A stretch of DNA of 64,000 nt, from the IMG/VR virus record IMGVR_UViG_3300028584_001240; one strand, written 5' to 3'. A program made the translations under genes and the position numbers. The notes below the pieces were generated by a model, which saw only the letters and a program-made list of their open reading frames with translations, had not been told where the DNA came from and made no database searches. The stretch is from a virus (taxonomy: Duplodnaviria; Heunggongvirae; Uroviricota; Caudoviricetes). Shown here piece after piece: positions 1 to 60,166 of this stretch. How positions within the stretch are numbered: the stretch's first letter is position 1; each line of letters opens with the position of its first letter.

Positions 1-193
1 TGATACATCTGGACTCAACACAGCTATGGGTATTAAAGGCTATTATCACACAGTAGCTTCAACCAGTGATGATGATTTTGAAGAAAAACTTACAAAAATG
101 ATTGAAGACAGGTATACATTACCTTTATTGAATAAGAAATTAAATGAACTCACTGATGATGATATTTTAGTCTTAGAAATGAACAACACTTGA
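1..193 (+). CDS. Partial hypothetical protein, C-terminal MxxI-class; paralog of 206..901
   Basis: Frame 2 open to TGA 191-193; ends TLPLLNKKLNELTDDDILVLEMNNT, similar to the end of the next ORF (TIELFGKEFLKLTKRELKLFEMYLE). Confidence 0.75.
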   Translation, partial: DTSGLNTAMGIKGYYHTVASTSDDDFEEKLTKMIEDRYTLPLLNKKLNELTDDDILVLEMNNT

Positions 194-205
194 AAGGATA
201 TTATC

Positions 206-901
206 TTGAACAAAATAGTTTTAAATGATTCATTGATGAAAAATATAACTCATACATTGAGAAGTCAAATTCTTATTGATGACCTATCAACTTATCATAA
301 TGAGTTTTTAAGAGACATTGCAGATTATGAGAATGTACCTGATCTTGTCGAAAAAAAATTAAGATATGAAATGTACTGGAAGCTATTCCATTCATCAAAT
401 ACTATGAAATTATACAATAGCATTATAGACAACAGTATTGAAACTTCAAGAAATTTATACACTGTTGAGTTTCTGGGTTCATTAACTGACGATATATTGT
501 CTGTTACGATACCTAGACATTACATTAGACGCTCATTTTATAATCAATCAGCAGCGGGTGAACATGAAATTACTCCTGCTAATGCTAATTTTATTACATT
601 GGTTGCGAAATTATTTAGACATCATAAAGATTTTGTTATGTTAGAAAAAGGTGATTACGCAATTTTGAATAAATCATACGTCAAAATGAAAGTTGATCAC
701 GAACAGGTATTGAGTTCACAGTATGTGGAAAAATATATTTTAAAGCTAGGCGGAACAACAGTATCAACCAGTAAAAGGATGGACTTTAAAAAAGGTCTTA
801 ATGATGTGATATCTGAAAAACACACAATTGAATTATTTGGTAAAGAGTTTTTGAAACTAACAAAAAGAGAGTTAAAATTATTTGAAATGTATTTGGAGTA
901 A
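206..901 (+). CDS. Hypothetical protein, MxxI-class C-terminus
   Basis: 231 aa ORF, AAGGA RBS before TTG start, ends LFEMYLE. Confidence 0.8.
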   Translation: MNKIVLNDSLMKNITHTLRSQILIDDLSTYHNEFLRDIADYENVPDLVEKKLRYEMYWKLFHSSNTMKLYNSIIDNSIETSRNLYTVEFLGSLTDDILSVTIPRHYIRRSFYNQSAAGEHEITPANANFITLVAKLFRHHKDFVMLEKGDYAILNKSYVKMKVDHEQVLSSQYVEKYILKLGGTTVSTSKRMDFKKGLNDVISEKHTIELFGKEFLKLTKRELKLFEMYLE

Positions 902-904
902 AAC

Positions 905-1597
905 ATGGCACTAATACCGCATATAAGAAAAGTCAGTAAAAACATGAATGGCAGAGATTTTGTCATTGGTGATATTCATGGTTCTTACGAATTATTAATG
1001 GAATATCTCGTATTCATTAAATTCGACTTTGAAAAAGACAGATTATTTTCTGTGGGTGATTTGGTCAACAAAGGTGTTAATTCATTGGCTGTCTTCGCAC
1101 TCATTGATGAGCCGTGGTTTTATCCCGTATTAGGTAACCATGAAATTATTGTGATTGATTTCTGGCGTTATGGAGATTACCCTAATCATTTGGATGAATA
1201 TGGTGGTGAATGGTTCTTAAACTTATCAGATGATGAAAAAGAAGCCGTTGTTTTAAAACTTGAAACATTACCAGCAGCGATTGAATTAGAAGTCCATAAT
1301 AAAAGGATTGGCATCATTCATGCCGAAGTTCCTGATGATAATTGGAAAATATTTGATGCTAGATTGAAAAGCACCAAAGGAGTAGAAGCACTTCGTGCTC
1401 TTAATGAAGCTCTCTGGGGTCGGTCTAAACATAAACGTAAGGATAAATCAAAAATTAGAAATATTGATTATGTCTATGTGGGGCATACCATTGTAAGAGA
1501 TCCATTAGTCTTAGGTAATGTATTCTATATTGATACAGGAGCCTTTTATTATGAAGAGTTCACCATTGTTAACCTTACTGACATCTACAGTGTGTAA
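905..1597 (+). CDS. PPP-family Ser/Thr protein phosphatase (PphA / lambda NinI-like metallophosphoesterase)
   Basis: GDIHG, VGDLVNKG, LGNHE, GHT, IDTG motifs. Confidence 0.9.
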   Translation: MALIPHIRKVSKNMNGRDFVIGDIHGSYELLMEYLVFIKFDFEKDRLFSVGDLVNKGVNSLAVFALIDEPWFYPVLGNHEIIVIDFWRYGDYPNHLDEYGGEWFLNLSDDEKEAVVLKLETLPAAIELEVHNKRIGIIHAEVPDDNWKIFDARLKSTKGVEALRALNEALWGRSKHKRKDKSKIRNIDYVYVGHTIVRDPLVLGNVFYIDTGAFYYEEFTIVNLTDIYSV

Positions 1598-2282
1598 TCA
1601 ATACCTGATAATCCTTGTGTAAACATCAGAATATCAACCAATGCTAAATTTGACATTAATACCTCATTAGAAGGCATTTTTTGTTGAGGTCCAAAAAACT
1701 CTGGGATGTGTTCTAATAGGAGATGATTAGCATGTTCTTGCAATATGGACATTTGAATAGTATTTCAAATTCAACAAATGTTAAGTTCTGCGTGGACAAT
1801 AGTTCCACGTCATAATAATTATATTGATAAACCATATCATCTTCAATAATAAACTTGGTGCAATGTTCATCAACACCAATGAATCTAAAATGAAGGCTTT
1901 GTGTATTATTCGAAAATACCACTTTACTTCTCAATTCAGAAAAATAACCAACATCATAACGTCTAGAATAATAATTGTAAAAGTTAGACAAGGTGAGATG
2001 AAGACGTTTAGTCAATAGCATATTGAATTCAAAAGAAATCTCTTTATAGAAGTATCGCCCATCAGAAGTATAGTCAATCACTTTATAGAGATAAACAAAA
2101 TAAAAAAGACCTGTGTGTGTATTTTTTAATTTAACCATATGCTTTTGCACTGAAATAATCTCATGTACAACACAATCTGTATAAACACGAATAAGTTCCA
2201 TAGCGAGATCCGCTAGGAACTTATTTTCTTCGTGTTGACAAGTGAATTTAACATCAAATACACGCTTCACAAAATCGGTCAT
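1585..2282 (-). pseudogene. Hypothetical protein with apparent 1-nt frameshift near 1753 (full length about 232 aa)
   Basis: ORF 1713..2282; adding one A at TTC-AAA-TG continues as MSILQEHANHLLLEHIPEF...MSNLALVDILMF to TAG at 1585, resembling the C-terminus of 2990..3697. Confidence 0.6.
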
Positions 2283-2830
2283 ATGAACTTATAACCTCTG
2301 TAAGTCAAACTGACCCTTTCACCACAAGGTCTGTCATTCTTAGGGATTCTGTGTAAATCTGTCGCTTGCATACCGGCTGGCATGATACAAGCACTCCCAT
2401 GTCCTAACTTAATCTTAGTGACTTCCTTAGAACTGGTTTCAGAAGGTCTTTCTTTAAACCAGATTTTTCTTTCAGCACCCAAACTAACAGTGACAATAGG
2501 TCTGTCAGGGTCCATTTCTGGACTGTCATCAGCGTGCCATCCAATGTGACCAGCAAAGTCATCATACAAATTTAAAAAGCAGACATCGAAAGTAGATTTC
2601 AATTCTTCTTCCAACTTGTATCTGATGTTTAAGATGTCATCACTGTAAGGACTTCTAGTATAGGTATCAGCAAACGCTGGATTGCCATAACTATAAGGAA
2701 CGTCATGATCGTTGCAGTAGTATTCTTTTCTAGGTTTGTTTCCGTATCTTTTCCATTCTAACTCGTTCAATAATCTTTTGAACACAGCATCAGGATTAGC
2801 CACGAAATTTGGGACATAAATAGGTTTCAT
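2279..2830 (-). CDS. AlkB-family 2OG-Fe(II) dioxygenase
   Basis: CFLNLY, WHADD (HxD), VSLGAER, HRIP, RVSLTYR; GGAG RBS favours ATG at 2830. Confidence 0.9.
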   Translation of the reverse strand: MKPIYVPNFVANPDAVFKRLLNELEWKRYGNKPRKEYYCNDHDVPYSYGNPAFADTYTRSPYSDDILNIRYKLEEELKSTFDVCFLNLYDDFAGHIGWHADDSPEMDPDRPIVTVSLGAERKIWFKERPSETSSKEVTKIKLGHGSACIMPAGMQATDLHRIPKNDRPCGERVSLTYRGYKFI

Positions 2831-58590: not shown

Positions 58591-58726
58591 AATCAACTCC
58601 TATAATTAAACTAAAACAGACAAGATTGCCTCATCTGTTTTCGTATCTTAACAGAGAAGCCGCAAAAAAGCAACCACTAAAAAAAAGAAAAGCACCACTA
58701 AGGTGCTTACTATTTTATCTTATTGT

Positions 58727-58912
58727 TTACTTATCTCTTTTATTAGCTCTTTTTATAGCTTCCTTCTTCCTTAGAACTTTTAGTTCTGTTTCAGGAATAT
58801 AAAATTCATGTTTCTTATAATCTTGAATTATCTTAGCTTTGTCACAAGCTTTTTTAAATCTACGAAGGGCAAATTCAATTCTTTCGTTAGGTTTGAGTAT
58901 TATTTTTGGCAT
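58727..58912 (-). CDS. rpsU: 30S ribosomal protein S21
   Basis: MPKI....NE.IE.ALRRFKKACDKA......KKHEFY.P. Confidence 0.9.
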   Translation of the reverse strand: MPKIILKPNERIEFALRRFKKACDKAKIIQDYKKHEFYIPETELKVLRKKEAIKRANKRDK

Positions 58913-59110
58913 TATGATATCCTATTCTTTTCAAGTCCATTTATTATATTATACCATATCAATTAAAATATTATAAGTCAATAACAACAATTCCTATTTG
59001 TATATATTGAATAATCCATCATTAGACGAATGACTATTATTTTACTCCTGTTTAATATAGATTTTTTAAGATTAAACTGTTAAAATACTAAACAATTTAG
59101 GAGAATATTA

Positions 59111-59497
59111 ATGACTAAAATTACAGTAGAAAATTTACTGGCTGAATTAAGTGCCAATGACCTCAGTCCAAGAGACAAACAAAGAACAGTCAATATTGTG
59201 GTAGTCAATGAAGGCACAATGGGGGCTACACCTACCGTTAATGTCAAACAAGCCAGTTTTGGTTTTGATTGGGATTCCCAAATGTTTATGCTGTTTCCAG
59301 AACAACCACTCACTACACTGACCCGAGAAGAAATTGAAGACATCTCTAAAAGTGTCAATAATACACAATCCTTTCATACACGCCAACTCCTTAAAGAGAA
59401 CTATGAAAGAGAGAAGACATTAAGAGAATTTATAAAAAATCTTGACAAAAGTGTGATGACTGATGAGCAAAAAGAATTCATTAGCCAATTGAGGTAG
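59111..59497 (+). CDS. Hypothetical protein
   Basis: 128 aa, AGGAG RBS, GFDWD motif. Confidence 0.75.
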   Translation: MTKITVENLLAELSANDLSPRDKQRTVNIVVVNEGTMGATPTVNVKQASFGFDWDSQMFMLFPEQPLTTLTREEIEDISKSVNNTQSFHTRQLLKENYEREKTLREFIKNLDKSVMTDEQKEFISQLR

Positions 59498-59557
59498 TTT
59501 TAAAAGAGTAAAAAGAAAAGAGCTTTGATAGCTCTTTTTTTTGTTTTTGTTAACGTG

Positions 59558-60166
59558 TTACGTCATTTTTAACATTTCGAATAGTGTTAAATTAGCTTCT
59601 GTTAAATCTTCCATACTTTGAATATGAAGATCTTTAAAACAGGTTTTAACAAATTCTTTATTGCCTTTTAAGACTTCCATAATAATAAGATTCATCAAAG
59701 GCGTATCTTTATAATCTAATGTAATATCAAAAATCTTCTCCATAAAGAAATGGTTAAAGAATTCGTTCAATTGATCGTTAAGTAAAATACTGTCACTGTG
59801 GTCATACCAAAAATATTTGGAATCTAATAAAGCTCCATTCACGGCATAATTATTCAAAGTCTTAGTAGGCTTGCCATATGTATTTGCATTTTTATAGTAG
59901 ATAAGGACAGGTTGTCCTGTAAACGAGTACGTTATCTGAGCTGGAAGATCATATTCACTTTCTTTACGGTCAGATGAGTTTTTGTTGAATTTTTTAATAA
60001 TACTATTACTGCCATCGTCATTCACAATAAACGTAAAACTGTCATAAATATAATGAATGTTAAAATGAGTTTGTAGAAAAGACACGATGCCATATTTTTC
60101 TATGTCTTCGGGTAATAGAACGGAGTAGCTTTCTGCGATAAAATATTCATAATCTTCTTTATTCAT
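59558..60166 (-). CDS. Hypothetical protein, MxxI-like variant
   Basis: Ends DLTEANLTLFEMLKMT. Confidence 0.75.
   Translation of the reverse strand: MNKEDYEYFIAESYSVLLPEDIEKYGIVSFLQTHFNIHYIYDSFTFIVNDDGSNSIIKKFNKNSSDRKESEYDLPAQITYSFTGQPVLIYYKNANTYGKPTKTLNNYAVNGALLDSKYFWYDHSDSILLNDQLNEFFNHFFMEKIFDITLDYKDTPLMNLIIMEVLKGNKEFVKTCFKDLHIQSMEDLTEANLTLFEMLKMT

Follow-up and report, generated by a model that had tools for sequence, protein, structure and literature searches.

A conserved C-terminal ending on sequence-unrelated protein families of an uncultured gammaproteobacterium-like genome: a candidate address tag

About a quarter of the genes in a 64,000-nucleotide stretch of DNA (IMG/VR record IMGVR_UViG_3300028584_001240, catalogued as viral; hereafter the window, meaning the whole stretch that was analysed) encode proteins that stop in the same way, their ending being hydrophobic(-7)-x-x-Met(-4)-hydrophobic(-3)-x-Ile(-1)-COOH. 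In the ~100 kb covered by the window and a relative, this ending is found on at least 19 families that are unrelated in sequence, and the proteins that bear it (hereafter carriers) diverge more rapidly than the genes around them. The ending is most likely a common address or docking tag at the C-terminus. As for what is addressed, we favour an export or translocation signal that would be read in the cytoplasm, a reading that we regard as plausible rather than probable and that is weighed below against its rivals. No earlier account of a motif of this kind turned up in a literature search.

The original prediction, made from the letters of the window alone, had listed 18 proteins with Met exactly four residues from the end (all 18 endings are correct as written) and had put the number expected by chance at about two, which agrees with our count. 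Methionine makes up 2.47% of the residues in the set of open reading frames (ORFs), and Met occupies position -4 in 19 of 81 ORFs for an expectation of 2.0 (binomial p 1e-13); each of the other positions from -1 to -15 has Met in 1–5 ORFs. The enrichment survives when paralogs are collapsed, with Met(-4) in 11 of 69 ORFs (expected 1.7, p 1e-6) and the full motif [LIVMF]xxMxx[ILVFYM]-stop in 6 of the 69 (expected 0.19, p 5e-8). It is found again in a relative, a syntenic JGI contig that was walked over 56 kb (L087-L091) and that, with L084, provides a 66-kb stretch adding 38 kb to the window: 24 of its 73 ORFs have Met(-4). When the two are pooled, the tag is present in 20 of 106 BLAST clusters (expected 2.6, p 2e-12), and the multi-member families carry it on every member (8/8, 8/8 and 5/5). 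Anchoring to the chain end is strict, since the motif coincides with the chain end 33 times and lies 1–5 residues away from it, all five offsets combined, once. A chance or compositional artefact has in its favour that the genome is AT-rich and biased, and that the motif was defined after being seen. However, p values of 1e-6 to 2e-12 after paralog collapse, an enrichment restricted to Met(-4) and to offset zero, and orthologs that conserve the motif refute this explanation, whose likelihood we consider negligible. One ORF (39717-41618) nevertheless looks like an expected chance case rather than a carrier, because Met(-4) is the only motif position it has and its 724-aa homolog in the relative ends EHKPKSA.

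The ending is defined by few positions. In 19 family representatives, which were selected for Met at -4, a hydrophobic residue is present at -7 in 18, at -3 in 15 and at -1 in 16 (Ile in 12). The sites most often acidic are -15 (11/19) and -5 (8/19), with 7/19 at both -14 and -11, and runs of Glu are absent from most representatives in the acidic part around -15 to -11. The tag segment is modelled as a helix by AlphaFold2 (AF2) in the two largest families of the window (F1 and F2), and the predicted tag helix often starts with a Ser/Thr cap and acidic residues near -15 to -11. The last 20 residues of the carriers are amphipathic and slightly acidic (median charge -1), with no terminal transmembrane (TM) segment. 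Ile(-1) is encoded by ATT, ATA or ATC, Leu codons vary, all three stop codons are used and the downstream DNA is unrelated; the constraint on the tag therefore acts at the protein level. A DNA repeat or recombination site lying over the gene ends was rejected on the same grounds, no repeat being present.

Conservation of the tag stands out against bodies that drift. In F1 (31 sequences, ~28% identical to the reference), Met(-4) and Ile(-1) are among just nine invariant columns. The F2 alignment (29 sequences) varies least in its last 12 columns (rank 1 of 226 stretches of 12 columns), and both Met(-4) and Ile(-1) are invariant in the 28 full-length sequences. In the family of the carrier at 52153 (23 sequences, 63-100% identity), DELKLIEMxAI is invariant. 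Leu or Ile never replaces Met(-4) in ~80 sequences of three families, the bodies of which are merely 25-80% identical, and Met(-4) is retained in 16 of 16 ortholog pairs. Judging from these alignments, the tag is under purifying selection. The proteins that it terminates, on the other hand, evolve faster than their untagged neighbours, with a median identity to the JGI relative of 82% vs 95% (p 1.5e-4) and to another relative, L081, of 59% vs 81% (p 1.3e-3). Copy number changes as well, F1 having five copies in the window and three in both the JGI relative and L081, and F2 having four, four and two, respectively.

The carriers of the window, together with the other features mentioned in this report, are collected in Table 1. 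BLASTP groups the 18 listed proteins into F1 (five), F2 (four), F3 (two), F206 (two) and five singletons (2990, 11568, 27506, 29236 and 52153), which leaves about nine families in the window. The statement that the 18 are otherwise unrelated is thus true of families, between whose bodies no profile similarity is seen, and not of individual proteins. Two carrier families consist of four TM segments followed by a soluble part of ~100 aa and the remaining carriers are soluble, a mixture that had been predicted correctly, as had the absence of the tag from any recognisable enzyme (no Pfam-bearing protein has it). The size range originally given, 200-250 aa, holds inside the window and has to be widened outside, since carriers altogether are 200-307 aa plus three of ~410 aa, reaching 415 aa in the relative. 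Orthologs of the singletons illustrate how the tag is kept: that of 2990 (54% identity) ends LVSMLES, i.e. with Met retained and the last residue changed, while that of 27506 is 46% identical overall and 12/14 identical over the last 14 residues, the last seven being all identical. For the near-variant at 59558, hhalign aligns the tail with that of F206.

Table 1. Coordinates of tagged genes and other features of the window.
Feature	Position	Strand	Length (aa)	Ending or remark
F206 C-terminal fragment	2..193	+		VLEMNNT; full-length JGI ortholog of 234 aa with the same ending
F206 protein	206..901	+	231	LFEMYLE; Met(-4) in all 5 cluster members
Tagged orphan	2990..3697	-	235	MVEMMEC
F1 tandem array, 5 paralogs	6131..9281	-		xxxMxxI
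F1 member	6131-6733	-		
F1 member	6749-7378	-		
F1 member	7378-7995	-		
F1 member	8008-8664	-		
F1 member	8661-9281	-		
Tagged orphan	11568..12170	+	200	IFDMVDI; SIFDM..I kept in orthologs at 56% and 86% identity
Three adjoining weakly similar paralogs	14656-16767	-	221/225/253	two overlapping
F2 tandem array, 4 paralogs	16852..19766	-		L[IL]xMxxI
F2 member	16852-17550	-		
F2 member	17555-18259	-		
F2 member	18260-18970	-		
F2 member	19065-19766	-		
Conserved orphan	20298-21791	-	497	in the highest-GC part of the window (39%)
Methyl-accepting chemotaxis protein (MCP)	25100-26752			
Tagged 4-TM protein	27506..28255	-	249	TAIMYSI
Tagged orphan	29236..29883	-	215	LLSMISY
F3 member	29885..30604	-	239	LHAMKEV
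F3 member	31446..32144	-	232	IYRMVNI
Probable chance Met(-4) case	39717-41618	+	633	STKMSVM
Inverse autotransporter	44433-47990			
Tagged 4-TM protein	52153..52800	+	215	LIEMNAI
TilS	56341-57498			<=35% identity to Gammaproteobacteria (GTDB species genomes)
Near-variant	57554..58207	-		WMVDAITY; Met(-4) absent, membership uncertain
Near-variant	59558..60166	-		LFEMLKM-T, the motif plus one residue; sole case at offset 1-5
Phage-style auxiliary genes	905-1597, 2279-2875, 9787-10311, 33118-34266, 53390-53809			
Untagged proteins with Lys/Arg-rich tails	3818-5002, 9787-10311, 14040-14570, 53390-53809, others			

Carriers are orphans in the strong sense. They match no family in Pfam, NCBIfam or PHROGs and no sequence in PDB; by a count from annotations, about a quarter of the untagged genes do belong to a family in one of the three family libraries. 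Neither GTDB species genomes nor IMG/VR contain relatives of F1 or F2, and a word search restricted to the tails in 5.8 billion proteins returned nothing but orthologs of 52153. A signal-peptide-like N-terminus is present on 3 of 30 tagged and 13 of 79 untagged proteins, a difference that is not significant. In the 4-TM carriers, the even number of TM segments and the short loops lead us to read the tail as cytoplasmic. Many untagged proteins of the window have endings of another kind, rich in Lys and Arg.

How deep the differences between carrier bodies go matters, because the soluble carriers could instead form one hyper-diverged superfamily, derived from a ~220-aa ancestor by tandem duplication, with the terminal helix as a structural or oligomerisation element and no reader at all. 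That the carriers are clustered, tandem and uniform in size would suit such a history, and the AF2 models provide further points for it. F1 (predicted local distance difference test score, pLDDT, 85.8; predicted TM-score, pTM, 0.83) and F2 (pLDDT 78.8, pTM 0.77) are modelled with their elements in a similar order, from a helix through a beta-meander, a long helix, a beta-hairpin or sheet and another helix to the terminal helix. Both weakly match several generic alpha+beta entries that they have in common (3u1w, 4hbr, Med17C and p32), so that the soluble families may conceivably go back to a very old shared ancestor. In addition, the terminal helix of F1 (residues 186-204) has a pLDDT of ~95, that of F2 being at 48-68, and the positions shared between families are merely three or four. 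Profile comparison argues the other way. For F1 against F2, hhalign gives a probability of 0.2% when the profiles are shallow and of 0.15% when they are deep (~30 sequences each), and all-vs-all hhalign of 21 families (210 pairs) found no body homology and no pair above 30%. The best pairs are F206-52153 (P 5e-4) and 27506-52153 (P 1.6e-3), and in three of the four top-scoring pairs the C-terminal 15-46 residues are what aligns, in end register. Moreover, two carriers have four TM segments and three are ~410 aa long, and a helix with a purely structural role should accept Leu or Ile at -4 as well as extensions of the chain, yet Met is invariant and the position of the stop is fixed. A single fold with this helix in its core is hence not what the carriers have overall, although the soluble families may conceivably share one, given the F1 and F2 models and the chance that the confidently modelled F1 helix packs against its body. 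Taken together, we find a common superfamily unlikely as an explanation. Known folds are of little help, with best VIA Z scores of 7.5 (F2) and 5.2 (F1), no Foldseek match at E <=0.001 and a best atlas TM-score by query of 0.44; the carriers amount to at least 19 orphan families with folds that are new or unassignable.

A different angle is offered by more distant relatives with a GC content of 25%, L092/L096 (ENA k119_15568) and L094. Identity between their backbone proteins and those of the window is 26-76% (66% for the TilS of L096), and they share with window positions 1-58000 a common gene order comprising AlkB, a 394-aa orphan, DUF2061, a 279-aa protein, three paralogs, 86-aa and 497-aa orphans, the MCP, T5orf172, an aminotransferase-like protein, DEDDh, EndoI, a LeuA_dimer-like protein and TilS. 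The region is far more compact in these relatives, and the tagged arrays of the window sit between backbone genes that adjoin each other there. The F1 and F2 arrays are absent at the corresponding positions (for F2, in both L092 and L094), carriers 27506, 29236 and 52153 have no BLAST homolog in the corresponding regions, and neither the inverse autotransporter nor the orphans of 633 and 569 aa are present. Met(-4) is found in 1 of 63 genes. The few candidate counterparts have endings that are close to the tag without being identical to it: a likely F206-like homolog (L094 15636-16331) ends IIDITLY and a weak F3-like homolog of 29885, at the syntenic spot (L092 5654-6373), ends LIRLIYH, both with the C-terminus in register; and two accessory orphans end FIKLYFH (L092 9231-9854) and ILKMLDY (L096 366-983, beside TilS, a position that matches 57554). 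All four have the hydrophobic register of the tag at -7, -4 and -3, but position -4 is taken by Leu, Ile or Met and position -1 by Tyr or His, which hints at a lineage-specific version of the code, although there are only about four endings and the motif was defined after the fact. A lineage-specific code would fit co-evolution with one reader. It also bears on the superfamily alternative, because the likely homologs of two families both replace Met, a hint (small as the numbers are) of a lineage-wide constraint rather than a family-specific one.

The nature of the replicon is relevant to another rival, according to which the tail is the packaging signal of a giant phage-like or mobile element that would load carriers into a virion or particle for injection into the next host. 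The window is AT-rich (31% GC) and part of a contig of 1,851,360 bp with relatives solely in metagenome assemblies, three of which have contigs of 1.84-1.92 Mb. Its expression signals are prokaryotic, with a Shine–Dalgarno-like 4-mer close 5' of 54 of 79 starts (1 of 79 in a control window), overlapping stop and start codons inside gene arrays and, 3' of several genes, a GC-rich hairpin followed by a T-run that resembles an intrinsic terminator. Recognisable genes are few in Pfam and family-library scans and include, besides those in Table 1, endonuclease I, an IscA/ErpA-like protein, a DEDDh exonuclease, AlkB, NUDIX, a NinI-like phosphatase, T5orf172 and three tRNAs. We treat the window as coming from an uncultured, divergent gammaproteobacterium-like genome, within which it is possible that a very large mobile element resides. 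Packaging would draw support from the high orphan content and from the phage-style genes of the region (NinI-like phosphatase, AlkB, NUDIX, polynucleotide kinase, T5orf172, Thg1, aminoacyl-tRNA synthetases and tRNAs). However, a PHROGs scan of 71 window proteins detected no capsid, portal, terminase or tail family, F1 and F2 are without IMG/VR relatives, the contig is 1.85 Mb long, has relatives of similar length and bears TilS, ErpA, an MCP and an inverse autotransporter, and the capsid-targeting sequence of phage T4 is N-terminal and cleaved. We therefore regard packaging as very improbable.

Several observations on the surroundings of the tagged genes deserve recording in their own right. 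The auxiliary set of phage style in the window consists of a NinI-like phosphatase (PHROG E 1e-62), AlkB (E 7.5e-66), NUDIX, a polynucleotide-kinase-like protein and T5orf172, and the upstream part of the JGI relative (L089-L091) has Thg1, PcfJ, a 256-aa protein with an AlaRS domain, and an ArgRS so divergent that it had no relative in a pattern-based scan of GTDB species genomes. The three paralogs that directly adjoin the F2 array are highly conserved, being present in every relative (88-98% identity in the close ones) and have no family match. For the 497-aa orphan, an identity as an ankyrin/OspC protein was considered (protein-language-model neighbour score 0.89, Pfam OspC E 0.007) and found unsupported; it has four homologs among 1.84 billion representatives, none with an Ank/OspC match. 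Finally, between the homologs of window genes 14040 and 13685, the JGI relatives (L083/L084) have an extra N6_N4 methyltransferase and a 310-aa gene (13570-15300), both absent from the window, which is probably a restriction-modification insertion.

What, then, could the tag do? The original prediction had proposed that the terminal positions form one face of an amphipathic helix read by a common partner, be it a packaging or secretion receptor or an AAA+/protease hub. The prediction is supported in part, several of the results above favouring a functional, protein-level C-terminal tag on unrelated, fast-evolving and tandemly expanded families; a gene for the partner is what the ~100 kb examined do not provide, as no AAA+ or virion gene, and no secretion-system component, was found there. 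That the chain end is strictly needed and that Met never becomes Leu or Ile would favour a specific binding pocket over generic core packing, and we infer a single partner, with export as the outcome. In the model that we tentatively favour, the ending would form the last part of a short amphipathic helix and would mark a protein repertoire that is large, lineage-specific and rapidly diversifying, a cytoplasmic receptor (a coupling ATPase or an adaptor) would bind this helix together with the free carboxylate, and it would deliver substrates, whether soluble or from the inner membrane, to a secretion machine, with the variable bodies as the effector part. Export is preferred because, among systems with signals at the extreme C-terminus of many unrelated proteins of the cytoplasm and inner membrane, those of type IV secretion are the best known.

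A number of points weigh against this export model: (i) secretion-system components are lacking in the window and in the 56 kb of the JGI relative, where a 296-aa gene tried as a type IV coupling protein-like candidate, on the basis of its size and position, has no Pfam or PDB match, (ii) no eukaryote-like or enzymatic domain is found on any carrier by Pfam, and the uniformity of carrier size is unlike known effector sets, (iii) the signals known from Dot/Icm substrates are loose and regarded as unstructured, vs the confidently modelled terminal helix of F1, which could pack against its own body, and (iv) a hidden Markov model of the last 24 residues built with one family left out misses the omitted family. 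Since omitted families are not recovered and hhalign matches between tails are merely weak, the tag appears to be a sparse motif of ~3-4 shared positions rather than a homologous C-terminal domain.

Alternatively, the tail might dock carriers to an intracellular hub – an AAA+ unfoldase or protease, a chaperone, a scaffold – or act as a C-terminal degron, with no export involved. Strict dependence on a free C-terminus is typical of docking tails and degrons, the tag apparently faces the cytoplasm in 4-TM carriers too, and secretion genes were not found nearby. Against this, the region has no AAA+ or protease gene, the motif is unlike any known degron, a third of the island genes serving as adaptors or degron substrates would be without known precedent, and fast evolution, changes in copy number and absence from relatives suit outward-facing functions better than housekeeping regulation. 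On balance, we rate a hub or degron as rather doubtful, if conceivable.

Should the export model be correct, it would have implications beyond this lineage. Secretion signals for cytoplasmic substrates (of type III, IV and VI systems) are mostly fuzzy and poorly predictable, while a near-deterministic tag would make the whole cargo repertoire of an uncultured organism a computable list, would be a minimal portable handle for finding the reader, and would offer a natural case of signal/receptor co-evolution while cargo bodies race ahead. A reader that is not a known secretion component would mean a new targeting system. The boldest version, to which we give a minor but genuine chance, is an undescribed addressing system in an uncultured gammaproteobacterium-like lineage, in which a dedicated receptor would read the code on perhaps at least 100 proteins that evolve fast, co-evolution would shape tag and receptor from lineage to lineage, and the machine would be either not a known secretion system or one equipped with a new coupling adaptor.

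Comparison with known systems helps to delimit the tag. As far as its sequence can tell, it lacks the defining features of WXG100/ESX substrates, RTX-type type I substrates, sorting tags, CaaX boxes, ssrA and T4 capsid-targeting sequences. LPXTG, PEP-CTERM, GlyGly-CTERM and the C-terminal domain of type IX secretion substrates, which call for a TM helix with a basic tail or for a beta-sandwich of ~80 aa at the C-terminus of Sec-exported proteins, are rejected, since carriers do not end in a TM segment and mostly have no signal peptide, and so is the CaaX box, which needs Cys(-4) where carriers have Met(-4). Type I secretion of HlyA, proteases and lipases uses an uncleaved C-terminal signal with an amphipathic helix and hydrophobic terminal residues. 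Typical type I substrates, however, have RTX repeats and are not polytopic inner-membrane proteins, as two of our carriers are; Pfam finds no RTX repeats in carriers, and no genes for ATP-binding cassette or membrane fusion proteins are nearby. Short motifs that require a free C-terminus are also known from ssrA (LAA-COOH), the ClpX-binding tail of SspB, the C-terminal tail of HslU and HbYX, and these AAA+ docking tails and degrons resemble the tag in having one reader for many carriers. The endings here are MxxI-like rather than LAA-COOH, and we know of no such tail or degron that is spread over dozens of fast-evolving orphan families. The capsid-targeting sequence of T4 is likewise one short address on diverse, fast-evolving proteins; it differs in being N-terminal, phage-borne and cleaved by the prohead protease.

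Two secretion systems come closer to what the export model would require. In the ESX-1 (type VII) substrate CFP-10/EsxB, the key residues are Leu, Met and Phe within the last seven, a hydrophobic pattern similar to that of the tag. This C-terminus is bound by the FtsK-like ATPase Rv3871 (PMC1937011). The likeness to ESX-1 lies in a short, extreme C-terminal tail read by a cytoplasmic ATPase of the FtsK/SpoIIIE type, the difference in its being confined to one family of ~100-aa WXG100 hairpins in Actinobacteria and Firmicutes, whereas the carriers are 200-415 aa long, belong to many families with alpha+beta or 4-TM bodies, have no WXG100 match in Pfam and come from a Gram-negative-type genome. 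The other system is Dot/Icm (type IVB), known from effectors of Legionella and Coxiella, the signal of which is looser and more compositional than a tag with an invariant Met(-4), a strongly preferred Ile(-1) and a predicted helix, and of which no gene is found in the ~100 kb; the carriers differ also in their uniform size and in being devoid of eukaryote-like domains. A hydrophobic residue at -3 or -4 is found in many Dot/Icm substrates along with an acidic E-block (PMC3052360), the E-block being sought here at about -10 to -17, and TM effectors require the C-terminal signal to be on the cytoplasmic side (PMC11602083). The tag shares the positional feature, its -3 residue being hydrophobic in 15/19 representatives, and, just as in Dot/Icm, where hundreds of unrelated, lineage-specific and mostly orphan proteins bear the signal within their last 20-30 residues, one address at the extreme C-terminus would serve a whole repertoire.

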